Part shown: in pieces, positions 49,292 through 62,629 of the stretch | Numbering within the stretch: position 1 is the first letter of the stretch | Layout: every line of letters begins with the position of its first letter | Source: Gammaproteobacteria bacterium | GTDB lineage: Bacteria > Pseudomonadota > Gammaproteobacteria > CAJXQU01 | Direction of reading: 5' to 3' | Assembly: GCA_965238175.1 (NCBI GenBank) | Contig: CBDEGZ010000003.1 | Coordinates: 64,001 to 128,000, forward strand | Length of the DNA stretch: 64,000 nt | Position numbers and translations under genes: made by a program | The notes under the pieces: generated by a model | Database searches by the model: none | The model's input: the letters and a program-made list of their open reading frames with translations, nothing else | Told to the model about the DNA's origin: nothing

Positions 49292-51574
49292 TTAAAGGCT
49301 ACTGTATTTTTCTCTTAATCGCTGACGAACAAGTTCAGCGATAGTGTTAAACATAAATGTTGCCATAAACAAGACTAATGCTGCCAGGAACAAGATTCGA
49401 TAGTGTGTACTGTCAACTTCCGACTCAGGCATTTCCACGGCAATATTTGCAGATAATGCTCGAAAACCTTGAAAGATATTGACGTCCATAATGGGCGTAT
49501 TACCTGTGGCCATTAAGACGATCATTGTCTCGCCAACTGCACGACCAAAACCGATCATTAATGCAGAGAAAATGCCCGGGCTGGCGGTTAACAAAACCAC
49601 ACGAATTAAGGTCTGCCAGCGCGTAGCACCTAGTGCTAATGAACCAACAGTAAGATGTTTCGGCACACTGAAAATCGCATCTTCACTGATAGAAAAAATA
49701 GTTGGAATTACTGCAAACCCCATAGCAATACCAACAACTAAGGAATTCCGTTGATCAAAATCTAGCCCGAGCGTATTAGCAACCCAGGCAGGCATGTCAT
49801 TATTGAAAAAGGTTGCTTCAATTGGGTGACTTAGGCTCATGGCAATTAAGCTGGAAATAATGACAACGGGTATCAATAAAGCAGCTTCCCAGCCATCGGA
49901 TATATTGTGGCGTATACGTGTTGGTAATTTTGTCCAGAAAAATGCAGCTAATAACACCGATGACGGGACTAATATGAAGATCAAAAACACACCGGGAAGA
50001 TTCTTTTCTACCAGTGGTGCTAACCATAAACCAGCAAGGAAGCCTAAAATGACAGTGGGTAATGCCTCCATGATCTCAATGCTAGGTTTGACCACATTAC
50101 GCATTTTTGGCGTCATAAAATAAGCGGTAAAGATCGCGCCAAAAATTGCTAAAGGAACCGCAAATAACATTGCATAAAAAGCAGCTTTTAAGGTACCGAA
50201 GGTAAGTGGAGTTAAGCTAAATTTCGGTTCAAAGTCATTACTTGCAGAAGAAGACTGCCAGATATATTCGGGCTGTTGTCTACTTTCATACCAAACTTTG
50301 CCCCAAAGTGAATTCCAGGATACCTCAGGATGTTCATTGTCGATATGCATGAAATGCATATCACCTGTAGTTGTCGTTGCCAGCAAAGCATTCGCTCTGG
50401 GAGAAACTGTCAGCAGGCGAATGTTTTGATCAAAAATTGATTTCACCAACAGTTTTCGATGAGCTGTTGTATGGAAAAGCCCGATGTTTCCACCCTCATC
50501 TGCCACAGCAAAACCTTTGCGAGAATGTTCTGGTGCAATTATTGAAATTGGTTTGTTACTTAATTTGAAGTCACGAACTTTTTTTATTTTGTACTTGTTA
50601 TTGTTATCTCTGACCGGAAACCATTGGCTTATTTTACCGTTAGAATCTCCGATTAAGATTGAAATTCCACCGGCCAGAAACTCAATTGCAGTTACTTTTT
50701 CATTTTCACTTACGACACCAATACGATCTATTAAGACTGGTTTATCTATATCTGATATTGAGAAGTAGATTAGATCGTTTTTGTCGGTAATGATGTATAG
50801 CTCATCTTGATCAACATCTAGTCTAAGCCACGTTATGTTTTCCCCCGGCAAATCAATCTCAGTTTGTTCTTTTTCGACCTCAACATCATTACCCAACATA
50901 GATTCTTCGGTGGTAAAACGCGTAAGTAATAGCCGATTATCTGCTGTGACTGCTACCACCGTGGTTTGGTCTTCACTATTTTGTGCAGATAATTTGACGA
51001 TAGATCGACCTTTCTCATCTAGCTCGACAGGATCTTCACCTAACGGAAATTCCAATTCTGGGGATATCTTACGCACATCGTTCGGAAAACTGATCTGGTA
51101 GACGTGTTTTGCGAGCAGCATAGAACCATTTTCTAGTCCTAACGCGATGATAGCTTGTGAAGGATCACCTTTGCTGACGGAGGTAATTTTTTGGGTTGCT
51201 TCTTGCAACGCAAGAAGGTTTTTTTGATTAAGAACAGTACCTTCTTTTAATGTAAAAAATGTAGCTTTACCCTGTAGATCAACACTCAAACCAATTTCAG
51301 CGTATTCCTCCGTCGTAATCAGTTCTGGCACATTGCCGAGAATTTCTGATGTATTGAGTTGGGATTTGGTTTCTATTTCTGCGCCTTTAAATAGAGGGAC
51401 GACAACATAGAACAAATAAAAGAAGATCAAGAGTATTGCGATAATAACGCTGATACCACCAAAGCCCATGGCCTGCCTAAACAAACGGTCTTTGAGATCT
51501 CGCCAACGTTGGCGTCGCAGGGTCGCAGGGTCATTACGTTTAGGCAAAATATGATCGGTGGAAGTATCAGTCAT
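49292..51574 (-). CDS. pstC: Phosphate ABC permease PstC, long form with large periplasmic domain (system 1)
   Basis: WQSSSASNDFEPKFSL, KPSIEIMEALP, GRAVGETMIV. Confidence 0.93.
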   Translation of the reverse strand: MTDTSTDHILPKRNDPATLRRQRWRDLKDRLFRQAMGFGGISVIIAILLIFFYLFYVVVPLFKGAEIETKSQLNTSEILGNVPELITTEEYAEIGLSVDLQGKATFFTLKEGTVLNQKNLLALQEATQKITSVSKGDPSQAIIALGLENGSMLLAKHVYQISFPNDVRKISPELEFPLGEDPVELDEKGRSIVKLSAQNSEDQTTVVAVTADNRLLLTRFTTEESMLGNDVEVEKEQTEIDLPGENITWLRLDVDQDELYIITDKNDLIYFSISDIDKPVLIDRIGVVSENEKVTAIEFLAGGISILIGDSNGKISQWFPVRDNNNKYKIKKVRDFKLSNKPISIIAPEHSRKGFAVADEGGNIGLFHTTAHRKLLVKSIFDQNIRLLTVSPRANALLATTTTGDMHFMHIDNEHPEVSWNSLWGKVWYESRQQPEYIWQSSSASNDFEPKFSLTPLTFGTLKAAFYAMLFAVPLAIFGAIFTAYFMTPKMRNVVKPSIEIMEALPTVILGFLAGLWLAPLVEKNLPGVFLIFILVPSSVLLAAFFWTKLPTRIRHNISDGWEAALLIPVVIISSLIAMSLSHPIEATFFNNDMPAWVANTLGLDFDQRNSLVVGIAMGFAVIPTIFSISEDAIFSVPKHLTVGSLALGATRWQTLIRVVLLTASPGIFSALMIGFGRAVGETMIVLMATGNTPIMDVNIFQGFRALSANIAVEMPESEVDSTHYRILFLAALVLFMATFMFNTIAELVRQRLREKYSSL

Positions 51575-51609
51575 AATATTTACTGGATGTTACACGAACT
51601 CTCACTTTT

Positions 51610-51634
51610 AAAAAAAGCCCCGCAAAAGCGGGGC
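51610..51634 (-). terminator. Hairpin/terminator between pstS and pstC
   Basis: GCCCCGC-AAAA-GCGGGGC with adjacent A-run. Confidence 0.8.
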
Positions 51635-51669
51635 AGATACTAAATTACACTAATTAACTAGAACTGCTT

Positions 51670-52644
51670 TTACTGACTTAATTCAAACAACGCTTCTTCT
51701 GCCACGACTGCAGGTAGAGGAATATATCCATCTTTGACAACCACTTCCTGACCTACTTTTGACAATATCATTTTAACAAATTCAAGCTCCAATGGTGAAA
51801 GTGATTTATTAGGATGTTTGTTTACGTAAACATATAAAAAACGACCTAAAGGATACTTACCCGTTACGGCATTTTCTGGCGTAGCATCGATAAATTCCCC
51901 ATCTGGTTTTTTAGTCAAAGGAACTGCACGCACACCCGAAGTTTTATAACCAATACCAGAATAACCGATACCGTTGACCGATTTAGTAATGCCTTGTACG
52001 ACAGAAGCAGAACCTGGTTGCTCATTCACAGAATCTTTATAGTCACCTTTGCAGAGTGCTTTCTTTTTGAAGTAACCATAAGTACCAGAAACGGAATTTC
52101 GTCCATATAGTTGGATAGGACGGTTAGCCCATTCACCCGTTAAACCTACGTCACCCCAGTTTGTAATGTCTGCATCGTGTTTACATTTTCGAGTTGCAGA
52201 AAAGATCGCATCCACTTGTGGAATAGATAAGCCTTTTACAGGGTTATCTTTGTTAACATAGACTGCAAGAGCATCGATTGCGACTGGAACAGCGGTAGCT
52301 TTATAGCCATGTTTTGCTTCAAAAGCCGCTGCTTCTTTGTCTTTCATTTTACGACTCATAGGGCCGAAATTTGAAGTACCTTCTGTTAGTGCAGGTGGTG
52401 CTGTTGAAGAACCAGCCGCTTGAATTTGGATATTAACGTTAGGGTATAAACGTTTAAATTCTTCACCCCAGAGCGTCATTAAGTTTGCTAGCGTATCAGA
52501 ACCGACACTAGAAACATTGCCCGATACACCACTCGCTTTTTGGTAATCCGGAAGTCCCGAATCCGCTTCAGCATAAGATCCCACCGGGATCATGAACGCA
52601 GCGGCAATTGCACTTGCTCTAAAGAAATTTTTATTGAAAAACAT
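51670..52644 (-). CDS. pstS: Phosphate-binding protein PstS (system 1)
   Basis: [29 protein letters not shown]. Confidence 0.95.
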
Positions 52645-52701
52645 TTTATTACCTTCCTCAGGATGACTGTTAATGAATCACCGACAGTATGATCAGGACA
52701 G

Positions 52702-52741
52702 GTAACAAGTTTGTTACAGAAATATTACAGCTTGATGACAA
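52702..52741 (-). promoter_or_regulatory. Four-unit Pho box upstream of pstS1
   Basis: TTGTCAT-caag-CTGTAAT-attt-CTGTAAC-aaac-TTGTTAC. Confidence 0.88.
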
Positions 52742-52882
52742 GCTGTGTTTTTATAATTAAAGGAAATTATTTAGGCCTATAGAACAGTTAGTTAACCTGA
52801 TGTGATGGTCTCCTCCCCCTAACGGCATCTAGGTGCCATGATTGAACTGACATACACACAATCAAAAGAGGAGAAGACCAAA

Positions 52883-53896
52883 ATGAAGACTACAACAATC
52901 GGGTTAGACATAGCAAAAAACGTATTTCATGCTGTCTGCTGTAATCAACAAGGGCGTATAATCAAAAAGAAAATGTTAAAGCGAGCGCAGGTACTCTCCT
53001 TTTTTCAATCTCAACCTCCTTGTTTAGTCGCAATAGAATCTTGTGCAACGTCACAGTATTGGGCCCGAGCGATACAACAACAGGGACATCAGGTGAAATT
53101 ACTACCACCTCAGCATGTTAACGCATTTCTAATCGGCAATAAGAATGATTATAACGATGCCTTGGCCATCGCCGTTGCTGCGAAACAACCTCATTTAAAA
53201 AGTGTGGGCATTAAATCAGTTGAGCAACAAGACAACCAGGCACAACATAAAGCAAGAGACTTAGCGGTCAGACAAAGAACCGCATTATGTAACCAAATGA
53301 GAGCGCTTGTTGCAGAATATGGCATTAGCCTTCGTCCCGGCCTAAATACCCTACGTCAATCTATCCCGTTGCTATTAAGTGATGAGAACGAACGGTTGTC
53401 CGTTACTTTCAAAAGGATACTGCGCCAGCTAAAGGAACAATGGCAATCACTTGATGCCTGTATTGCGACATTTGACCAATTGATCATTCAATCGGCAAAA
53501 AACAATGCGATTTGCCAACGCTTACAAACTATTCCAGGGTTTGGGCCGATGGTCTCGAGCGCGTATTTTAATGAAGTGGGAAACGGCGCTCATTATCACA
53601 AAGGGCGCGATGTGTCCGCCTCATTAGGACTTGTTCCACGACAGTACAGTAGTGGTGGTAAAGAGGTGCTACTGGGGATCAGTAAACGCGGCAATAAATA
53701 CCTTCGTTGTTTGTTAATTCTAGGCGCGAAGGCCGTGGTATCAAGAGCCAAAACGAAAGGCGATAAACTGAGTCAATGGATTAATCGTTTAGTTGAGACG
53801 CGGGGGCATAATCGAGCGTGTGTGGCGTATGCCAACAAAATGGCAAGAATGGCCTGGGCTATAACGGTTTCTGGTGATGACTACTCACCGGCCTAA
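52883..53896 (+). CDS. IS110-family DEDD transposase/recombinase
   Basis: IGLDIAK, E(SC), KNDYNDA, IPGFG, GLVPRQYSSGG, GNKYLR. Confidence 0.96.
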   Translation: MKTTTIGLDIAKNVFHAVCCNQQGRIIKKKMLKRAQVLSFFQSQPPCLVAIESCATSQYWARAIQQQGHQVKLLPPQHVNAFLIGNKNDYNDALAIAVAAKQPHLKSVGIKSVEQQDNQAQHKARDLAVRQRTALCNQMRALVAEYGISLRPGLNTLRQSIPLLLSDENERLSVTFKRILRQLKEQWQSLDACIATFDQLIIQSAKNNAICQRLQTIPGFGPMVSSAYFNEVGNGAHYHKGRDVSASLGLVPRQYSSGGKEVLLGISKRGNKYLRCLLILGAKAVVSRAKTKGDKLSQWINRLVETRGHNRACVAYANKMARMAWAITVSGDDYSPA

Positions 53897-54126
53897 ATAG
53901 AGAGAACAAATCATTTCAACGAATTGCGAAGGTAAAACTAAAGATGGCATAACAGGTCAAACCAGCCTATTGAAAACCTGTCGAGCTCAGGGGTAACTAA
54001 TACCGATAACCTGATAAGGAAAATAGGCGCGTAATACATCCAGGTCAGAAGTTGAAAACTTCATTGAAGGCCGTATATATGACAGCAATCCTGTCCCTGT
54101 TATCTGAATGTTTTATCTTGCAATAC
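53897..54126 (+). ncRNA. Putative bridge/seekRNA of IS copy 1
   Basis: Stem GCCTATT/AATAGGC encloses CGAGCTCAG and TAACCTGA target matches; second loop has ACATC and ATATATGA donor matches; RNA ends not determined. Confidence 0.78.
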
Positions 54127-54152
54127 GGGAGGAGACCATATATGAGATCGGT

Positions 54153-55052
54153 TTAAGCCACGGTTGCTAATGCCCGTTTTAAGTAATTAAATTCATCGCC
54201 AGACAAGTTCAAAGACGGCTTATTCTCTTTCAGACAATAAGCGATCAATCCACCGATAAGATTAAGCATAAAACCATGTACAGAGCGGTGTCTGGAATGT
54301 TCTATCTGAGTAATGTTCTTCAACTGGTCATTAATGGTTTCAATAATAAAACGTCTGCTCAGCATGGCTCTGTCCCAGAGCGATGTAGCTTTTGCCTTCA
54401 TGTTTTTTCGAACATTTGTCACCAACTCCACGCCTTTATCAAACAATTCGCTCGATAAGGCTTGGCTGATATAGCCCTTATCCCCGTAAAGTTTGCCACT
54501 CATCGCCTTGCACAGCTCGGGAACAGGCTGACGGTCATCGATATTTCCCGGGGTGATTTTGGCTGCCAGGATATCCCCCTGATGATTGGTGATAAGGTGT
54601 AACTTGAAACCATAAAACCAACCCATTGTGCCTCGACCTCGCTGGGCGATGTCTTTGAAAACACGGTGGCGTGGAATACGGAGGTTGTGGCACACTTTTA
54701 AGGCGGTTGAATCAACAAACGCAACACCTGTGGGTTTCCCTTTAAGATAAGAAAAGTAGCTACATAAAGGAACGAGCACTGTCGGCATCACCTCCAGAAA
54801 CCGCGTGTAGCTTAGCATCTGTGGAAAATCCTCGGCATAGAATTGAGCGATAAACCCTTTGTAGTAGTTCTTGAAATCGCGATGGTTGGAGTGATGAAAC
54901 AGGATGATGATAGTCATGATTTCGCTGGCTTGCATTCGCCCAACTCGACGGCGTTTGCGTTGCCCATCGGTCAGTAATTGTTGTTCCCACAACGGTATGA
55001 AGTGCTGACAGAAGTCATCGACATCACAAAAGATTTCAACTAGTTTATCCAT
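54153..55052 (-). CDS. IS982-family DDE transposase
   Basis: IFCDVDDFC, SEIMTI, FVDST, GWFYGFKLHL, GDKGYIS, IETINDQLKN. Confidence 0.95.
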   Translation of the reverse strand: MDKLVEIFCDVDDFCQHFIPLWEQQLLTDGQRKRRRVGRMQASEIMTIIILFHHSNHRDFKNYYKGFIAQFYAEDFPQMLSYTRFLEVMPTVLVPLCSYFSYLKGKPTGVAFVDSTALKVCHNLRIPRHRVFKDIAQRGRGTMGWFYGFKLHLITNHQGDILAAKITPGNIDDRQPVPELCKAMSGKLYGDKGYISQALSSELFDKGVELVTNVRKNMKAKATSLWDRAMLSRRFIIETINDQLKNITQIEHSRHRSVHGFMLNLIGGLIAYCLKENKPSLNLSGDEFNYLKRALATVA

Positions 55053-55143
55053 TGGCTTGTTCTCCTTTTTTTTCAATTGTTTGGTCACAATTGATCTGAT
55101 CGGGGGACAAGCCGTTAGTTCATTTCCTTAAGCCGAGTTGGGG

Positions 55144-55863
55144 TTAGTTACGATATTTTTCTTTGTCTTCCAGTCTTCTTTGGTGTCGCAGATTAACTCC
55201 GTGGATAAGATAGATCACATATTCGGCGATATTTCCTGCATGTGCTCCTAGCCTTTCAAGTGATTTCAACATTAACGTGATGTTGATCGAATGTCCGAGG
55301 TTTCTCGCATCTTCAAGTACAAAGGTTGTTAAATGCCTTAAAGATGATTGAAATTCAGCATCAAGCTCCTGATCAGCATTGAGTAAAGATTTTGCTAATT
55401 TTGAATCTAATTGATCAAAAGCAGTTAGTGCGGTTTCTAATAATTCCAATGACAATCTGCCCATTACAGAAATATCACGCAATTGGTTTTTTGCAGGCTT
55501 CGGTTGATTAGCATCTGAAAGTGACTCAATAATGTGTGCGATTCGAGCTGCTTCGTCACCAATTCTTTCAAGATCGACAACGATCCTGGAGAATGCCATC
55601 GTAATCCGCAGATCTTTGGAGACTGGACCACGTTTGTTAATGAGATCAATTATCTTATTATCAATAGCAACTTCCATGGAATCGACTTCCGGCTCTCTTT
55701 CCAAAACCAGTTTGGCCGCTTTTTCATCCTGTTCGAGCAATGCTTGAAGCGCGAGTCGACTTTGATCTAAAGCCAAGCCGCCCATTTCAAGTATTTGTAA
55801 GTGCAGATTATTCAAGTCACCATCAAAGCGCTGATCGGCATGTCCTTCTAGTGGTTGATTCAT
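55144..55863 (-). CDS. phoU: PhoU (copy 2)
   Basis: MGGL, DLR, DLERIGD, LERLG...NIAEYVIY. Confidence 0.92.
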   Translation of the reverse strand: MNQPLEGHADQRFDGDLNNLHLQILEMGGLALDQSRLALQALLEQDEKAAKLVLEREPEVDSMEVAIDNKIIDLINKRGPVSKDLRITMAFSRIVVDLERIGDEAARIAHIIESLSDANQPKPAKNQLRDISVMGRLSLELLETALTAFDQLDSKLAKSLLNADQELDAEFQSSLRHLTTFVLEDARNLGHSINITLMLKSLERLGAHAGNIAEYVIYLIHGVNLRHQRRLEDKEKYRN

Positions 55864-55881
55864 CGTATTTCTCCGTCACAG

Positions 55882-56775
55882 TTAGCCGAATCGGCCGGTA
55901 ATATAATCTTCCGTCAGTTGATGTATTGGTGCATTGAAAATTTGATTAGTTTCACCTACCTCAATCAGGTCACCCAAATGGAAGTAAGCGGTTCGATCCG
56001 AAACTCGCGCAGCTTGTTGCATAGAGTGTGTGACAATACAGATTGAGTAATTTTGGCGTAATTCAAGCATCAGCTCTTCAATAGCTGCAGTTGAAATTGG
56101 ATCTAAGGCTGAACAAGGCTCGTCCATTAAAATTACTTCTGGCTCAACAGAGATAGTCCGTGCAATGCACAGGCGCTGCTGTTGGCCGCCGGACAATCCG
56201 GTGCCAGGTTGATCCAGTCGATCTTTAACCTCTTCCCAAAGACCCGCTTTTTTTAAACTCGTTTCGACTATTTCATCAAGATCATCTTTGTGGCTGGCAA
56301 GACCGTGGATTTTTGGACCAAAAGTGATGTTCTCGCGGATTGATTTGGGAAATGGATTTGGTTTTTGAAAGACCATGCCCACCGTTGCACGTAAAGGAAC
56401 AACATCAATCTCATCACCATTAATATCTAGTCCGTCCATTTCTATCTTGCCGGTAACTCGACAGATATTAATGGTGTCATTCATTCGATTAAGACAGCGG
56501 AGGAAGGTTGATTTACCACAACCAGAAGGTCCAATCATCGCAAGAATCTCGGATTTTCCTACATCGAGATTCAGGTTTTTGATCGCCTGTTTTTCCCCGT
56601 AATAGACATTGATATCTGTACATATCATTCGTGGATCGTATACACGAATCTCACCGACAGTACGTCGGTCTTCTCGGCTTATTTTTGGTTGATTAGAATT
56701 GATCTCGACTGAAGTTCTAACGTGTTGCTCAATCACATCACTTGTTTGTTCATTTGTTAATGTTCCTAATTTCAT
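55882..56775 (-). CDS. pstB: Phosphate ABC transporter ATPase (system 2)
   Basis: [28 protein letters not shown]; ATG at 56775 has an RBS. Confidence 0.96.
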
Positions 56776-56803
56776 AACGGTATTCCTCAATAAATTATTT
56801 TGT

Positions 56804-58126
56804 CTACCAGCGACGTTCAAATTTTCTTCTTAGAAGTACGGCCAAAGCATTCATTAAGATCAGAAATCCTAATAAAACCATAATCGCGGCGGATGTTTTT
56901 TCAGTAAAAGCGCGTTCTGGACTGTCAGCCCATAGATAAATTTGAACTGGCAAAACGGTTGATGGATCAAAAGCGCCGCCTGGAATATCAACAATAAACG
57001 CAACCATACCGATCATCAAAAGTGGTGCAGATTCTCCTAAAGCTTGCGCCATACCAATGATAGTGCCTGTCAACATGCCCGGCATTGCTAATGGTAAAAC
57101 ATGATAGAAAATGGCTTGCAAAGGCGAGGCACCAACACCCAAAGCTGCTTCTTTGATTGAAGGTGGAACTGATTTCAGTGCTGCACGGCTGGAAATAATA
57201 ATGGTGGGTAGTGTCATTAATGTCAGTACTAATCCACCAACAAAAGGAGCCGATCTTGGAAGACCGAAGAAATTGATAAATACAGCCAGCCCTAACAAAC
57301 CGAAAACAATAGAAGGCACCGCTGCCAGGTTGTTTATGTTGACCTCTATAATGTCGGTTAGTCGGTTTTTGGCTGCAAACTCTTCTAAATAAATCGCCGC
57401 TGCAACGCCAATCGGAAACGACAAAAGCAATGTCACTAACAAGGTATAAATAGAGCCAACAATAGCTCCTCGAATACCTGCAAGTTCCGGATTGCGTGAA
57501 TCTCCATTAGTAAAAAAGATCGTATTAAAACGCTTTTCTATTCGATCTTGTTCTACCAATTTATCGACCCAGCCAATCTGATTGTCTTTGACGCGCCGAT
57601 CATCTTCGGGTAATAAGCGATCAATATGCCCTTTAATCAACATATCGATCTCATCATCAGCAGGTACCCAGAGATCAAATTTCTGATCAATTAAACCAGA
57701 ATCATTTTTGATCATTCTCTCAAGTTGAAAGGCAGCGTCTTGACTAACCAGACCATTCAATTTCCGTTTGTCACGGCGCCCATTAACATTAGGAAACATT
57801 TTACGCAAACTGGATTTTACAATACCTGCGTAGTTTGCTGAGGCGATTGCTTCTGCTGTTCGATTAGAGTTGGCCAATTCAGACTCCGTAAGATCAATTT
57901 CAATGCTGATGTAAGTCTGCTGAAAAGCACCATAGCCTTTACTAATAATACTGGTGAAAAGTAACACCAGAAAAAGTACACCTAAGAAAATTGCAGACTT
58001 CCCGAGAAACTGGAATCGTTTTTCAGCACGTTTTCGTTTCTTCATACCAGCATTCACCACCTCCATGGGGGTTTTTCTTGTGGGTACGTCGTTATCTTCT
58101 ATCGAAGAATTAATTTGATTATTCAT
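56804..58126 (-). CDS. pstA: Phosphate ABC permease PstA (system 2, DUF3333-type)
   Basis: [34 protein letters not shown]. Confidence 0.95.
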
Positions 58127-59489
58127 ATTGTTCCCGGTATTTACGCACGATGTGTAGTGCTATAACGTTGAGAATGAGTGTGATCACAAAAAGTGCTAAA
58201 CCCAATGCGAATGCCGCGAGAGTCTTAGCGCTATCGAATTCTTGATCACCCGTTAATAAGGTCACGATTTGAACGGTTACCGTTGTAACAGCGTCGAGTG
58301 GATTAGCCGTCAGGTTTGCAGCAAGCCCGGCTGCCATAACCACGATCATCGTTTCACCAATGGCTCGTGATACAGCAAGTAAAATGCCCCCAACAATTCC
58401 TGGCAATGCGGCTGGGAAAATGACCTTGCGAATGGTTTCAGACTTAGTAGCACCTAATCCATACGCACCATCTCGCATGGCTTGAGGAACTGCGTTTATC
58501 ACATCATCTGATAAGGATGAAACTAATGGGATAATCATAATACCCATCACTAAACCTGCAGCTAATGCACTTTCTGAGGCGACATCAAAACCTATATTTG
58601 TACCCAAGTTCCGAATGAAAGGTGCTACGACCAGTGCTGCAAAAAAACCATATACAACAGTTGGTATGCCTGCCAGAATTTCAAGCAATGGTTTTGTAAT
58701 TGTTCGAACTCTTTCTGATGCATATTCGGAAAGATAAATCGCAGACATTAAGCCAATAGGAACGGCAACGAACATTGCAATGAACGAGATCAAAAGCGTG
58801 CCGGTAAAAAGAGGTATCGCGCCGAAGCTACCACTTGAACCAACCTGATCTTCACGTATTGCCGTTTGAGGACTCCACTCTAGACCAAAGAGAAAGTCAC
58901 TGGCAGGGATCATGTTAAAAAAACGTAAAGACTCAAATAAAACCGAAAGTACGATTCCTAACGTAGTTAAAATGGCAATGCTGGAACAAAGGATCAAAAA
59001 TGCTTTTACTAACCATTCGACAACATTCCTTGCTCGAAATTGCGGGTGTATTTTTCTTAGTGCAACAAGACTTAACACTATTGCACCAGAAAGTGCTAGT
59101 ACGGTAAGAATAACGTGACTGGTACTTTGTAGACTCTTATAACGGTCTGCAGCTACCTGTAAGCTTGTATTAACCTCACCGGAAGTGACATTTCCCGCCA
59201 CAAGATTTTTAATATCGTTCACAACAAGGTTAAGATTTTCTGAATTGGCCGTTGGTAATTCTGAAACAACAATATTGGTGATAATGCCAGGCTCAAATAT
59301 CATCCATCCCGCAGCTAGTAAGAGTGCCGGCAAACCGCACCACACTGCGGTGAAAAAACCGTAGTAATTGGGTAAAGAGTGTAAATTGCGAACCTTTCCT
59401 TGCACCACGCTTAGGGCACGACTACGACCTAGAAAAAAGGCACAGGAACTCAGTAGTAATAGAATGATCGCAAGAATTGAAACTTGCAT
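58119..59489 (-). CDS. pstC: Phosphate ABC permease PstC (system 2, DUF3708-type)
   Basis: LHSLPNYYG, WSPQTAIREDQVG, SRAIGETMIV. Confidence 0.95.
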   Translation of the reverse strand: MQVSILAIILLLLSSCAFFLGRSRALSVVQGKVRNLHSLPNYYGFFTAVWCGLPALLLAAGWMIFEPGIITNIVVSELPTANSENLNLVVNDIKNLVAGNVTSGEVNTSLQVAADRYKSLQSTSHVILTVLALSGAIVLSLVALRKIHPQFRARNVVEWLVKAFLILCSSIAILTTLGIVLSVLFESLRFFNMIPASDFLFGLEWSPQTAIREDQVGSSGSFGAIPLFTGTLLISFIAMFVAVPIGLMSAIYLSEYASERVRTITKPLLEILAGIPTVVYGFFAALVVAPFIRNLGTNIGFDVASESALAAGLVMGIMIIPLVSSLSDDVINAVPQAMRDGAYGLGATKSETIRKVIFPAALPGIVGGILLAVSRAIGETMIVVMAAGLAANLTANPLDAVTTVTVQIVTLLTGDQEFDSAKTLAAFALGLALFVITLILNVIALHIVRKYREQYE

Positions 59490-59786
59490 TTGTGTCTCCT
59501 CCCGAATGGGAATTTGCAGCTTTTAATTTCGTTCATAAGCTACTTAAAATTATGTTGTTTTACTTAACCTGAACTCGGGATAAGAAATATCCATCCAGCC
59601 GATTTCTTTTAGCGCCTCTGTGCGTTGGAGTTGTTTCCAATAGCCCGCTATTGCTACGCAACTCCGCCTTAATAGCCACTAAAAGAAGTCCACTGGACAA
59701 AGCAGTCACAGCGATTTCATCTAACTCATTGTCTTTTAATGTTTTTATGGCCATTCTTATCCCGAGTTCATATATGGTCTCCTCCC

Positions 59787-60016
59787 GTATTGCAAGATAA
59801 AACATTCAGATAACAGGGACAGGATTGCTGTCATATATACGGCCTTCAATGAAGTTTTCAACTTCTGACCTGGATGTATTACGCGCCTATTTTCCTTATC
59901 AGGTTATCGGTATTAGTTACCCCTGAGCTCGACAGGTTTTCAATAGGCTGGTTTGACCTGTTATGCCATCTTTAGTTTTACCTTCGCAATTCGTTGAAAT
60001 GATTTGTTCTCTCTAT
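59787..60016 (-). ncRNA. Putative bridge/seekRNA of IS copy 2
   Basis: Reverse complement of 53897-54126. Confidence 0.78.
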
Positions 60017-61030
60017 TTAGGCCGGTGAGTAGTCATCACCAGAAACCGTTATAGCCCAGGCCATTCTTGCCATTTTGTTGGCATACGCCACACACGCTCG
60101 ATTATGCCCCCGCGTCTCAACTAAACGATTAATCCATTGACTCAGTTTATCGCCTTTCGTTTTGGCTCTTGATACCACGGCCTTCGCGCCTAGAATTAAC
60201 AAACAACGAAGGTATTTATTGCCGCGTTTACTGATCCCCAGTAGCACCTCTTTACCACCACTACTGTACTGTCGTGGAACAAGTCCTAATGAGGCGGACA
60301 CATCGCGCCCTTTGTGATAATGAGCGCCGTTTCCCACTTCATTAAAATACGCGCTCGAGACCATCGGCCCAAACCCTGGAATAGTTTGTAAGCGTTGGCA
60401 AATCGCATTGTTTTTTGCCGATTGAATGATCAATTGGTCAAATGTCGCAATACAGGCATCAAGTGATTGCCATTGTTCCTTTAGCTGGCGCAGTATCCTT
60501 TTGAAAGTAACGGACAACCGTTCGTTCTCATCACTTAATAGCAACGGGATAGATTGACGTAGGGTATTTAGGCCGGGACGAAGGCTAATGCCATATTCTG
60601 CAACAAGCGCTCTCATTTGGTTACATAATGCGGTTCTTTGTCTGACCGCTAAGTCTCTTGCTTTATGTTGTGCCTGGTTGTCTTGTTGCTCAACTGATTT
60701 AATGCCCACACTTTTTAAATGAGGTTGTTTCGCAGCAACGGCGATGGCCAAGGCATCGTTATAATCATTCTTATTGCCGATTAGAAATGCGTTAACATGC
60801 TGAGGTGGTAGTAATTTCACCTGATGTCCCTGTTGTTGTATCGCTCGGGCCCAATACTGTGACGTTGCACAAGATTCTATTGCGACTAAACAAGGAGGTT
60901 GAGATTGAAAAAAGGAGAGTACCTGCGCTCGCTTTAACATTTTCTTTTTGATTATACGCCCTTGTTGATTACAGCAGACAGCATGAAATACGTTTTTTGC
61001 TATGTCTAACCCGATTGTTGTAGTCTTCAT
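60017..61030 (-). CDS. IS110-family DEDD transposase/recombinase
   Basis: Protein identical to 52883-53896. Confidence 0.96.
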   Translation of the reverse strand: MKTTTIGLDIAKNVFHAVCCNQQGRIIKKKMLKRAQVLSFFQSQPPCLVAIESCATSQYWARAIQQQGHQVKLLPPQHVNAFLIGNKNDYNDALAIAVAAKQPHLKSVGIKSVEQQDNQAQHKARDLAVRQRTALCNQMRALVAEYGISLRPGLNTLRQSIPLLLSDENERLSVTFKRILRQLKEQWQSLDACIATFDQLIIQSAKNNAICQRLQTIPGFGPMVSSAYFNEVGNGAHYHKGRDVSASLGLVPRQYSSGGKEVLLGISKRGNKYLRCLLILGAKAVVSRAKTKGDKLSQWINRLVETRGHNRACVAYANKMARMAWAITVSGDDYSPA

Positions 61031-61127
61031 TTTGGTCTTCTCCTCTTTTGATTGTGTGTATGTCAGTTCAATCATGGCACCTAGATGCCGTTAGGGGGAG
61101 GAGACCATCACATCAGGTTACTTAGAG

Positions 61128-61160
61128 AAAAAAGGGGGGAAATAAAATTCTTTCACCCCC
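61128..61160 (-). terminator. Hairpin/terminator downstream of pstS2
   Basis: A-run then GGGGGGAAA...TTTCACCCCC. Confidence 0.6.
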
Positions 61161-61225
61161 AAGACCGTTTCTCAATAAGAGGGAGTTATCTCCCTTCTTC
61201 AAACATCCTTGTTTTCTATTTCTAC

Positions 61226-62320
61226 TTAAAGAGATAAGGGTTTTAGCTCTTTTGCATCAGATGTGAACTGTGCACGCTCTGTTTGCGGCATGGGGATAAG
61301 GCCACGATCAGAAAGATATCCATCGTCGCCATAAGCCTTATCGCTTGTGAACTCAGAGAGATACTCATCCATACCTGGAATTACGCCAACATGTGCTTTT
61401 TTTACATAGAAGAAAAGAGGACGTGAAATTGGATAAGTGCCGTCAGAAATAGTTTCGAACTTAGGTTCAATGCCGTTGACGACTGAGCCACGAACTTTGT
61501 CGAGATTTTCATCAAGGAAACTAAATCCAAAGACACCTAATGCTTTTGGATTTGAATCCAATTTTTGCACGATCAGGTTATCGTTCTCGCCGGCTTCTAC
61601 ATATGCACCATCTTCACGAATTGTATGGCAAATACTTTTGTATTTAGATTTCAATTTTTTAGCAAGTACCCTGTCGCCGCCTTTTTTCGCAGCTTTTGAA
61701 GCCTTTTTGATCTGTTTTATCCAGTCAAACGTTTTACAACCACCTTCCATTGCTAGTTCAGCAAAGGCATCACGAGTGCCTGATGTAGGTGGAGGACCTA
61801 ACACTTCGATATCAATTGCTGGCAATTTCGAATTTACTTCATTCCATTTCTTATAAGGATTTACAACTAATTTTTCACCACCTGCAGGTTCAGGAATTTC
61901 TTTTGCCAGAGCCAGGAAAATATCACGAGTGGTTAGTTCCATTGGAACGCCTTTCTTTGAATTAGCAACTGCGATTCCGTCATAACCAATCTTAACTTCG
62001 ATAATGTCTTTTACACCGTTTTTTTGACACATATCGAATTCAGATTTTTTAATCCTGCGTGATGCATTTGTGATATCAGGATGTTCAACACCAACACCAG
62101 CACAAAATAATTTCAAACCACCACCAGAACCTGTTGATTCAACTTTTGGTGTTTTGAAATTGGTGCTTTTTCCAAATTGTTCAGCAACAACTGTTGCAAA
62201 AGGGTAGACCGTTGAAGAGCCAACGATACTAATATAATCACGAGCAGCGATAGCATAGGCTGCACCTGCAACAACGGCTGTTGCCAGTACACTGCTTAGT
62301 AAAACACTTTTTTTAAACAT
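61226..62320 (-). CDS. pstS: Phosphate-binding protein PstS (system 2)
   Basis: IVGSSTVYPF, ESTGSGGG, GPPPTSGTRDAF, YPISRPLFFY. Confidence 0.95.
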   Translation of the reverse strand: MFKKSVLLSSVLATAVVAGAAYAIAARDYISIVGSSTVYPFATVVAEQFGKSTNFKTPKVESTGSGGGLKLFCAGVGVEHPDITNASRRIKKSEFDMCQKNGVKDIIEVKIGYDGIAVANSKKGVPMELTTRDIFLALAKEIPEPAGGEKLVVNPYKKWNEVNSKLPAIDIEVLGPPPTSGTRDAFAELAMEGGCKTFDWIKQIKKASKAAKKGGDRVLAKKLKSKYKSICHTIREDGAYVEAGENDNLIVQKLDSNPKALGVFGFSFLDENLDKVRGSVVNGIEPKFETISDGTYPISRPLFFYVKKAHVGVIPGMDEYLSEFTSDKAYGDDGYLSDRGLIPMPQTERAQFTSDAKELKPLSL

Positions 62321-62441
62321 GTCATACTCCTCTGTCAGGGGCAATAAAAATTTTTAGATAGAGGAGACGTCAATAAGTAGTTATTGTTTATATCACAGTA
62401 GCAATTGTGTTCGTCTCCTACACACACCCTCGCACATGGGC

Positions 62442-62481
62442 ATTTCAGTTATATAAAAGAAATGTTTCAGTTTTATTACAA
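62442..62481 (-). promoter_or_regulatory. Degenerate Pho box array upstream of pstS2
   Basis: TTGTAAT-aaaa-CTGAAAC-attt-CTTTTAT-ataa-CTGAAAT, 11-bp period. Confidence 0.55.
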
Positions 62482-62629
62482 AAACAAGAGTGTTTTTTTA
62501 AGTGACAGCAAGGATCAAGCTTTTTGATATGATTGTTTGCATTAGAATTGTTTAAGAATTGGCGTACTTTTTCTTTGCTCATATATCGAGAAAAAACTTT
62601 CTGATCTGCCCAGGTAAGATCGACTATGA

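Follow-up and report, generated by a model that had tools for sequence, protein, structure and literature searches.

Two IS1111-family elements in transposon ends

The window analysed here is a 64,000-nucleotide (nt) stretch of the genome of a Gammaproteobacteria bacterium (GTDB lineage CAJXQU01; assembly GCA_965238175.1, contig CBDEGZ010000003.1, positions 64,001 to 128,000). It carries two identical copies of an IS1111-family insertion sequence (IS), of which copy 1 splits the terminal inverted repeat (TIR) of an IS982-family element and copy 2 splits that of a MITE (a miniature transposable element with inverted repeats). The features of the two loci are listed below in window positions, TSD standing for target-site duplication; positions headed C3 are those of contig C3 of the same genome.

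52789..52794, strand not applicable: TSD TAGTTA of the IS982 element, repeated at 55145-55150
52795..55144, minus strand: IS982-family element, 1005 bp without its insert, split by copy 1 after the third to sixth base
54153-55088, minus strand: IS982 transposase gene (PF13612, E = 5.5e-78; NF033520, 279.4 bits, E = 2.5e-83, cut-off 130)
52798..54142, plus strand: copy 1 of the IS1111-family insertion sequence, 1345 bp within Partridge/Hall boundaries, including the extensions TGATGTG (left) and ATA (right)
52805..52817, plus strand: left sub-terminal inverted repeat ATGGTCTCCTCCC, 13 bp, kept in 65 relatives
52883..53896, plus strand: DEDD transposase/recombinase gene, 337 aa from an ATG behind GAGGAG, open frame from 52838
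54118..54123, plus strand: TTGCAA, candidate -35 box
54127..54139, plus strand: right sub-terminal repeat GGGAGGAGACCAT, partner of ATGGTCTCCTCCC, perfect over 13 bp
59567..61118, strand not applicable: MITE, 207 bp without its insert, perfect 20-bp ends ACCTGAACTCGGGATAAGAA, right end split by copy 2
59565..59580, plus strand: empty target site TAACCTGAACTCGGGA at the MITE left end, used as the empty-site reference
59771..61115, minus strand: IS1111-family insertion sequence, copy 2, 1345 bp, identical to copy 1

The inserted element is a member of the IS1111 family (within the IS110 family of ISfinder), and every hallmark that could be tested was found. According to PMC11187229, members of this family carry sub-terminal repeats of 11-13 bp and asymmetric extensions of 7 (or 6) bp on the left and 3 bp on the right, and these end features, together with a long non-coding stretch after the gene and a C-terminal GL-P----S(T)G motif of the transposase, separate them from IS110 proper. 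The transposase of the window element contains the Pfam domains PF01548 (E = 3.6e-16) and PF02371 (E = 6.4e-20) and scores 302.9 bits against the NCBIfam model NF033542, "IS110 family RNA-guided transposase" (cut-off 140), and the translation of 52838-53896 includes GLVPRQYSSG, a motif of the said type. The non-coding stretch 3' of the gene is about 249 nt long (53897-54142), as against 85 nt upstream of the ATG. Insertion is site- and orientation-specific and without target duplication, the doubled TGA representing one target copy and one IS copy, and the IS stands in a single orientation relative to the asymmetric target site. The IS1111-type identity proposed in a first-pass annotation of this DNA is thus borne out by the domains, the sub-terminal repeats, the extensions, the motif and the non-coding region.

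The boundaries given above follow the Partridge/Hall convention, in which the 7-bp left and 3-bp right extensions lie outside the sub-terminal repeats. The first-pass annotation had used 52801-54145 (plus strand) for copy 1 and 59768-61112 (minus strand) for copy 2, and the 3-bp offset arises because TGA is present on both sides of the IS. The boundaries of copy 1 are fixed by the empty MITE end at 59565-59580, and the extensions TGATGTG and ATA are consistent with the empty site TAACC/TGAACTCGG (the slash marks a junction, here and below). A repeat search of the window gave inverted arms at 52793-54157 and 59756-61120 (1365 nt, 100% identity), which reach beyond the IS itself and take in the common TAACCTGA and a partly similar right flank.

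Removal of copy 1 in silico joins TAGTTA/ACCTGA (52789-52800) to GATCGGTTTAAG (from 54146) and restores an end of the IS982 element, the TSD of which recurs on the far side at 55145-55150. The ends of this element are ACCTGAGATCGGTTTAAG and ACCCCAACTCGGCTTAAG, and the ACCCCAACTCGGCTTAAG end stops at 55144. Members of the IS982 family are about 1 kb long, have imperfect terminal inverted repeats starting with AC, and make a short target duplication; the window element, with 1005 bp, imperfect ends and a 6-bp TSD, fits this description. Removal of copy 2 restores TTCTTATCCCGAGT followed by TCAGGT (TTCTTATCCCGAGTTCAGGT), the exact reverse complement of ACCTGAACTCGGGATAAGAA at 59567-59586, with the TSD TACTTA at 59561-59566 and 61119-61124. 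The statements made at first reading on the restored IS982 end, on the perfect 20-bp MITE end and on their duplications are therefore correct. It had also been stated that both insertions fall at the same TIR position in the same orientation, exactly 6 bp inside; position and orientation are indeed the same, but "6 bp inside" is one of several equivalent drawings, with exchange at TG, 3-6 bp inside the repeat. Since the TSDs span the inserts, the IS982 element and the MITE predate the IS1111-type insertions.

About nine further copies of the MITE are present in the genome with 84-98% identity, and its 20-bp end ACCTGAACTCGGGATAAGAAAATG is identical to the transposase-proximal end of an IS982 copy at C3:1090214. 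The MITE, being short and non-coding, with like ends, a TSD of equal length and about 10 copies, is derived from an IS982-family element, and it would presumably be mobilised by the IS982 transposase. The three-tier system proposed earlier is a reasonable picture, with IS982 as the source of the transposase, the MITE as the multiplier of the ends and the IS1111-type element as the one that uses them for landing.

Site preference across the genome

The genome of the window (G000, 3.35 Mb) contains 24 full copies of the IS and one more that is cut by a contig start; among the full ones, identity to the window copy is 100% in 22 and 99.9% in two. In the orientation of the IS, the left flank is TAACCTGA in 24 of the 25 copies and AAACCTGA in the remaining one. 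The 24 full copies were excised in silico and all 853 AACCTGA sites of the chromosome were listed, 24 of them being occupied. A site was taken as TIR-like when the 12 nt after AACCTGA were within 4 mismatches of ACTCGGGATAAG or GATCGGTTTAAG. On this IS-excised chromosome 16 of the 29 TIR-like sites were occupied vs eight of the 824 others (Fisher p = 1.4e-20). When only the 5 nt after TGA were considered, at most 2 mismatches from GCTCG were found at 17 of 24 occupied vs 61 of 849 empty AACCTGA sites (p = 5.6e-14). Uninterrupted TAACCTGAACTCGGG was seen at empty ends.

Little variation is accepted in the left half-site and much more in the right one: in seven of the 24 copies, the 5 nt that follow TGA on the right contain 3-5 mismatches. 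The expectation at first reading that excised copies would leave IS982 or MITE ends behind is true of 16 of the 24, which sit in TIR-like sites, but not of the other eight. A diverged relic of a related IS (C3:2357914-2358291, 78.6% identity over 387 nt) also starts directly after TAACCTGA, and the target preference is therefore older than the present burst of identical copies.

The orientation of the IS with respect to the direction of replication showed no bias, with ratios of 7:7 and 7:4 on the two replichores. A preference for one end of the MITE was also considered (nine occupied and one empty vs one occupied and three empty), and no bias is claimed, because this difference arises largely from many of the other ends being mutated (ATCTGA, ACCTTG) or disrupted.

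Predicted guide RNA and its relation to the target

The seekRNAs and bridge RNAs of this group of elements are described as being expressed, trimmed to a length of about 70-100 nt and bound by the transposase. Bridge RNAs have a target loop and a donor loop (PMC11208160), and in IS1111-type seekRNAs the complement of the top strand lies 5' of that of the bottom strand (PMC11187229). An RNA of this kind is predicted in the 3' non-coding region of the IS, with the following parts.

53949..54103, plus strand: predicted seekRNA/bridge RNA, outer stem 53949-53956 with 54096-54103
53982..53990, plus strand: guide 1 CGAGCTCAG (CGAGCUCAG), complement of the target top strand CTGAGCTCG, that is, core and right half-site
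54007..54014, plus strand: guide 2 TAACCTGA, same as the target top strand, that is, left half-site and core
54035..54041, plus strand: donor-loop segment TACATCC, partly complementary to the left extension of the IS (GATGT)
54075..54082, plus strand: donor-loop segment ATATATGA, copy of the right extension of the IS and the core

Guides 1 and 2 sit in the first internal loop with a small hairpin between them, and their order, top-strand complement first, is that of the published IS1111-type seekRNAs. The top-strand target specified by guide 1 is TGAGCTCG. The combined guides specify TAACC-TG-A(G/A)(C/A)TCG, which equals the last two bases of a TANNTA duplication followed by about 11 first bases of the IS982-family and MITE terminal repeat.

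A scan of species-representative genomes for the transposase gave 80 loci, in 65 of which both IS ends were located via the sub-terminal repeats. After omission of the near-duplicate loci L031, L032, L034, L036, L038, L039 and L060, the last 210 nt of 58 relatives were aligned with the window copy (alignment A1, 59 rows). The alignment consists of a conserved scaffold broken by hypervariable segments. RNAalifold found 35 pairs, 20 of them with compensatory changes, and two internal loops inside the outer stem; 97.9% of the cells are paired, and none of 500 column shuffles reached any of five measures. When the partners were slid by 1-3 columns as a control, pairing fell to 37-46%. The single-sequence fold agrees (z = -1.77). 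From this covariation a structured guide RNA with a target loop and a donor loop is predicted.

The hypervariable guides change together with the flanks of each element. The reverse complement of guide 1 agreed with the first 9 nt of its own element's right flank at a mean of 6.86 of 9 positions, as against 3.54 in shuffled pairings, and guide 2 agreed with the left flank's final 5 nt and the 2 nt of the core at a mean of 6.38 of 7 positions, as against 3.09 (56 of the 59 rows were usable in both cases). None of 2000 permutations reached the observed means. In the donor loop, the T or C of ATATA[T/C]G corresponds to the base at the start of the core in 56 of 59 relatives, and the variable base of the left extension is complementary to its partner in the RNA in 56 of 58.

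Natural variants of the core and of the right half-site

The IS982 copies of the same genome differ at their ends, and this variation serves as a control for specificity. Two identical copies with the transposase-distal end ACCTGAGATCGG are both occupied, and a fifth copy is occupied at its transposase-proximal end, ACCTGAACTCGGGATAAGAAAATG. The end ACCTCAGATC in place of ACCTGAGATC is found in two full copies and one fragment (C3:526557-527599, 556582-557512 and 148216-148380), and none of these carries an IS1111-type insert; ends of the ACCCCA or ACTCCA type are likewise never occupied. IS982 ends that read ACCTCA in place of ACCTGA are thus empty, and immunity is associated with one G-to-C substitution in the core. 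Guide 1 accepts mismatches at positions 4 and 5, and the 8-nt left guide is exact in 24 of the 25 copies.

The same target in other genomes and metagenomes

A search with the IS DNA among 40 relatives of the window's genome gave matches in only two, G008 and G036. G008, one of six genomes of the same genus and of another species, holds a diverged fragment at a contig end; the complement of its guide 1, TGAATTCGG, agrees with its flank at 9 of 9 positions, and this flank (right flank starting TGAATTCGGGATAAGGG) is the end of a MITE of about 200 bp, the other end of which reads ...CCGAGTTCAGGT. The match in G036, of the same class, is a distant relative that targets repetitive extragenic palindromic (REP) sequences.

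Relatives at 68-78% protein identity occupy the same site in named genomes. The one in Pseudoalteromonas sp. (L027) has an IS982-family element as its host (NF033520, E = 1.9e-79), flanked on both sides by the TSD TACATA; that in Paraglaciecola algarum (L007) lies in a MITE of about 240 bp with the TSD TAAATA, and that in Shewanella frigidimarina (L003) in a degenerate element of about 180 bp with the TSD TACATA. In a Colwellia metagenome-assembled genome (MAG; L002) the junction is TTAACC/TGAGATCGGTTTAAGC, with guide 1 matching at 8 of 8 positions. More distant relatives are mostly in REP-like palindromes.

Metagenomes were scanned by the left junction alone, AACC/TGATGTRATGGTCTCCTCC, which gave 38 loci. 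The base before AACC is T in all 38. Contig ends or decay to stubs affect 29 of these loci, and in all nine with a readable right flank the sequence continues TGA(A/G)NTC..., as in the TIRs described above; since the search pattern left the right flank free, these loci confirm the target independently. A homologue of the IS982-family transposase adjoins the IS in L130, L140 and L146, and in L155 a left-end stub of the IS is fused to the interior of a gene of the IS982-family transposase type. The use of the same target by related IS elsewhere, for which a check had been suggested at first reading, is thus supported by a second species of the genus, by four other genera and by contigs of marine metagenomes.

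Among the PLSDB plasmids, a blastn search for distant matches with the whole IS found no record covering at least 80% of the query; the matches were short, of 70-80% identity and on enterobacterial plasmids, and included query positions 1154-1345 (RNA scaffold and end) and 821-915 (part of the gene).

As a separate observation, both guides are changed in a 77%-identical relative from a Halioglobus MAG (L001:2418-3755), the target being AGATC/TGAGGTTA. The opposite strand of the surrounding sequence reads ACCTCA/GATCTGGCTTGAAT, and a gene for an IS701-family transposase lies next to it. An end of the same type may have been hit there in the opposite orientation; no partner repeat was found at this locus, and its neighbour is of the IS701 family.

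Weighing of the alternatives

Taken together, the anatomy of the element, its site preference, the RNA fold, the covariation of guides and ends and the conservation of the target across genera make it highly probable (about 0.9 in our estimate) that the IS1111-type recombinase is steered by an RNA from its own 3' non-coding region to the ends of IS982-family elements and MITEs.

Several observations weigh against this reading. The eight copies outside any recognisable TIR comprise three that adjoin the end of an IS481-family element after only ACCTGAAC, one inside an IS481-family element at an internal TAACCTGACAGTCGG (C3:589241), one in the 27 bp that remain of a repeat pair, and three at unrelated sequence. 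Guide 1 fits neither TGAACTCG nor TGAGATCG, the two main classes of target, without a mismatch (one in each case), and the sole perfect site of the genome (C3:393938) is empty; this site lies 27 bp from an occupied one. The close relative is present as a single copy in five other named genomes, each of which therefore gives one event only, and the copy in L027 is broken by stop codons. Members of the clade at 73-77% identity (L001, L004, L005 and L006) have other targets, their guides differing in step with their different flanks. An Rfam 15 scan of 52700-55300 at E <= 1 gave no match, and the assembled contigs of four runs over 51500-62500 contained neither a bridge across an empty site nor a circle junction, the uncovered parts being uninformative.

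Part of this evidence would be expected if there were no specialisation at all and the guides merely named a short word (TAACCTGA with a loose right half) which these TIRs contain by chance, the TIRs being hit as its most numerous copies and not through an adaptation of the lineage to IS982-type ends. The tolerance of the right half-site, the eight copies outside recognisable TIRs and the switch of the close relatives L001 and L004-L006 to other targets all point in that direction. A mere short word is difficult to reconcile, however, with the finding of the same half-sites and the same position within IS982-type ends in five genera and in all nine readable metagenome loci, with the tuning of guide 1 to the local TIR variant (TGAATTCGG in G008, TGAGATCG in L002), and with 816 of the 824 non-TIR AACCTGA sites being empty; the absence of specialisation is hence regarded as improbable. 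It is far less probable still that the order of events was reversed, the IS982 element and MITE having inserted beside an IS1111-type element, or that the boundary was set wrongly and TAACCTGA is in fact the left end of the IS. An invariant left 8-mer next to a variable right flank is what an IS end would give, and a collapsed contig of the assembler spans from TAACCTGA to the right TGA. Against these stand the TSDs TAGTTA and TACTTA, which bracket each host element including its ACCTGA across the insert, the intact TAACCTGAACTCGGG at unoccupied ends, the rule of 7-bp and 3-bp extensions, which puts the boundary at TAACC/TGATGTG, and the relatives that share the same ends but have other left flanks, each fitting its own guide 2.

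Recognition of the host TIR by the transposase protein itself, with an incidental complementarity of the non-coding region, is equally hard to maintain and is given hardly any weight. The covariation of guide and flank at both half-sites, beyond all 2000 permutations, the conserved fold with variable loops, and the published biochemistry of IS1111-family seekRNAs (PMC11187229) and bridge RNAs (PMC11208160) all speak for an RNA as the determinant of specificity.

Proposed mechanism of insertion

A model can be drawn by analogy with the biochemistry published for ISEc11, ISKpn4 and ISPa11 (PMC11187229) and for IS621 (PMC11208160); it is from these family members that the synthesis of the RNA and its binding, the formation of a circle, the exchange at TG and the disabling of the host end are taken over. 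The IS would be excised as a circle in which the ends are abutted, ...CCATATA being joined to TGATGTG.... This joining would bring TTGCAA (54118-54123) to 17 bp from TATGAT and create a junction promoter that is complete only with the IS ends joined in the circle. The TTGC of this candidate -35 box is invariant in the 59 relatives of alignment A1, and junction promoters are known for this family (PMC11187229, PMC12288879). One loop of the RNA would pair with the circle ends (ATATA-TG on the right, GATGT on the left) and the other with the target TAACC-TG-A.... The recombinase would then exchange strands at the common TG, bases 4-5 of the TIR (ACC-TG-A), and the IS would come to lie 3-6 bp within the repeat, in a single orientation and without duplication. 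A repeat split by 1.3 kb would presumably be useless to the IS982 transposase.

Genomic surroundings and other elements

Both insertions lie in a phosphate-transport cluster on the minus strand (window 49292-62344), the genes of which show no sign of breakage. In gene order, the cluster is composed as follows.

61226-62344, minus strand: pstS-like gene
58119-59489, minus strand: pstC
56804-58126, minus strand: pstA
55882-56820, minus strand: pstB
55144-55863, minus strand: phoU
51670-52644, minus strand: second pstS-like gene
49292-51574: extra PstC/PstA-like open reading frame (ORF), 760 aa, named by eye

The MITE with its IS (1.55 kb) separates the upstream pstS-like gene from pstC, and the IS982 element with its IS (2.35 kb) stands between phoU and the second pstS-like gene. 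Both composite inserts may be polar on transcription of the cluster, and the two IS copies, being inverted and 5.6 kb apart, could invert phoU-pstBAC. An 81-aa ORF at 59560-59805 (minus strand) spans the MITE and the IS end; it has no Pfam match and is in all likelihood not a gene.

The most abundant IS of the genome is an IS481-family element of 1226 bp (NF033577, 278 bits) with about 55 copies on C3 (e.g. 1051578-1052803), 99-100% identity, ends TGTAGAA.../...TTCTACA and AT-rich duplications of 6-7 bp. None lies inside the window, and the nearest, at C3:128294-129528, is just beyond the window end. At C3:1050199-1054150, two inverted copies of the IS1111-type element enclose 34 nt of a MITE end, an IS481-family element and GT, with TAAGTA flanking both sides. 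The junction between the 34-nt MITE piece and IS481 and the junction between IS481 and GTTCAGGT occur three times each, with different outer flanks.

Two facing left ends of the IS, flanked by TAACCTGA ... TCAGGTTA, are found at C3:1393274-1393344, a perfect palindrome of 2 x 37 nt, and at C3:1154716-1154812. These structures are possibly scars of MITEs that were hit at both ends, after which the large inverted repeat collapsed. Similar left-end stubs are present in the metagenome loci L131/L152/L167 and L141/L163. Contig C1 (10,967 bp) has a GC content of 55.8% vs 40.4% for the chromosome and may be foreign DNA or mis-binned.

Comparison with known systems

The closest precedent for an IS within the end of another IS is IS1383 of Pseudomonas putida H, for which Mueller, Lauf and Hermann are said to have reported in 2001 the inverted repeats of IS1384 as the target. 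As in the present case, an IS110/IS1111-type IS targets the inverted repeat of another IS, but the host IS and the bacterium are different. IS4321 and IS5075 are IS1111-family elements that target Tn21-type terminal repeats (as cited in PMC11187229); they share with the window element the sub-terminal repeats and the insertion at one position and in one orientation in the terminal repeat of another element, but their host is a Tn3/Tn21-type transposon with 38-bp repeats instead of an IS982-family IS or MITE. For IS1111 of Coxiella burnetii, 20 of 21 copies are reported to lie in the MITE QMITE2 (Wachter et al. 2018, PMC5896051), so that a MITE multiplies the landing sites there also. The target in that case is, however, a GTAG REP palindrome inside QMITE2 and not a terminal repeat, and there is no parent element of the IS982 type.

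With ISEc11, ISKpn4, ISPst6 and ISPa11 (Siddiquee et al. 2024, PMC11187229) and IS621 (Durrant et al. 2024, PMC11208160) the window element has in common an RNA at the IS end, two segments matching both target strands, and a donor loop. The order of the guides is that of IS1111-type elements, and natural reprogramming of the RNA between relatives is likewise shared. Their targets, including that of IS621, differ from the present one, being a linear site in the chromosome, attC sites and REP elements, and their RNAs have been shown biochemically, whereas the RNA described here is predicted from covariation.

It had been supposed at first reading that targeting of IS982 ends was undescribed. No description of IS982-family ends as an IS1111-type target was found in the literature searched, which included PMC3205602, with ISfinder, TnPedia, the 2003 survey and the supplements outside its scope. 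The word IS982 is absent from the text of PMC11187229 and of 10.64898/2026.08.14.744561, although the source-data logos of PMC11187229 (about 300 ISfinder entries) could hold such a target. The principle of targeting transposon ends is, in view of IS4321/IS5075, IS1383 and the Coxiella IS1111, not new. The system described here adds a new target for elements of a kind known before, and its novelty is modest.

Biological significance

The ends of IS982-family elements and their MITEs represent a new natural class of targets and join the short list of those of transposon-end-targeting IS1111 elements, with a mechanism that is readable directly from the sequence. The 25 near-identical copies, 24 of them with a readable right flank, together with occupied and empty sites, constitute a natural specificity experiment for an IS1111-type guide, which bears on the off-target rules of bridge and seek recombinases in genome engineering. 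The system is also a tractable example of the parasitism of one transposon on another, with hints of a co-evolution of guide and repeat.

More tentatively, and with a chance that we would put well below even, this IS1111 lineage might be widespread in marine Gammaproteobacteria and a hyperparasite of IS982-family transposons, engaged in an arms race between guide and target and acting as a brake on the spread of IS982 and its MITEs. If this were true, the guide would track the resident TIR variant (TGAATTCGG in the sister species, TGAGATCG in Colwellia and the hybrid TGAGCTCG here), the hybrid guide would tolerate both local TIR variants, and host transposons would escape by a single-base change of the core, from ACCTGA to ACCTCA. 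The palindromes at C3:1393274-1393344 and 1154716-1154812 would then be collapsed MITEs that had been hit twice, and every insertion would disable one end of a host element.

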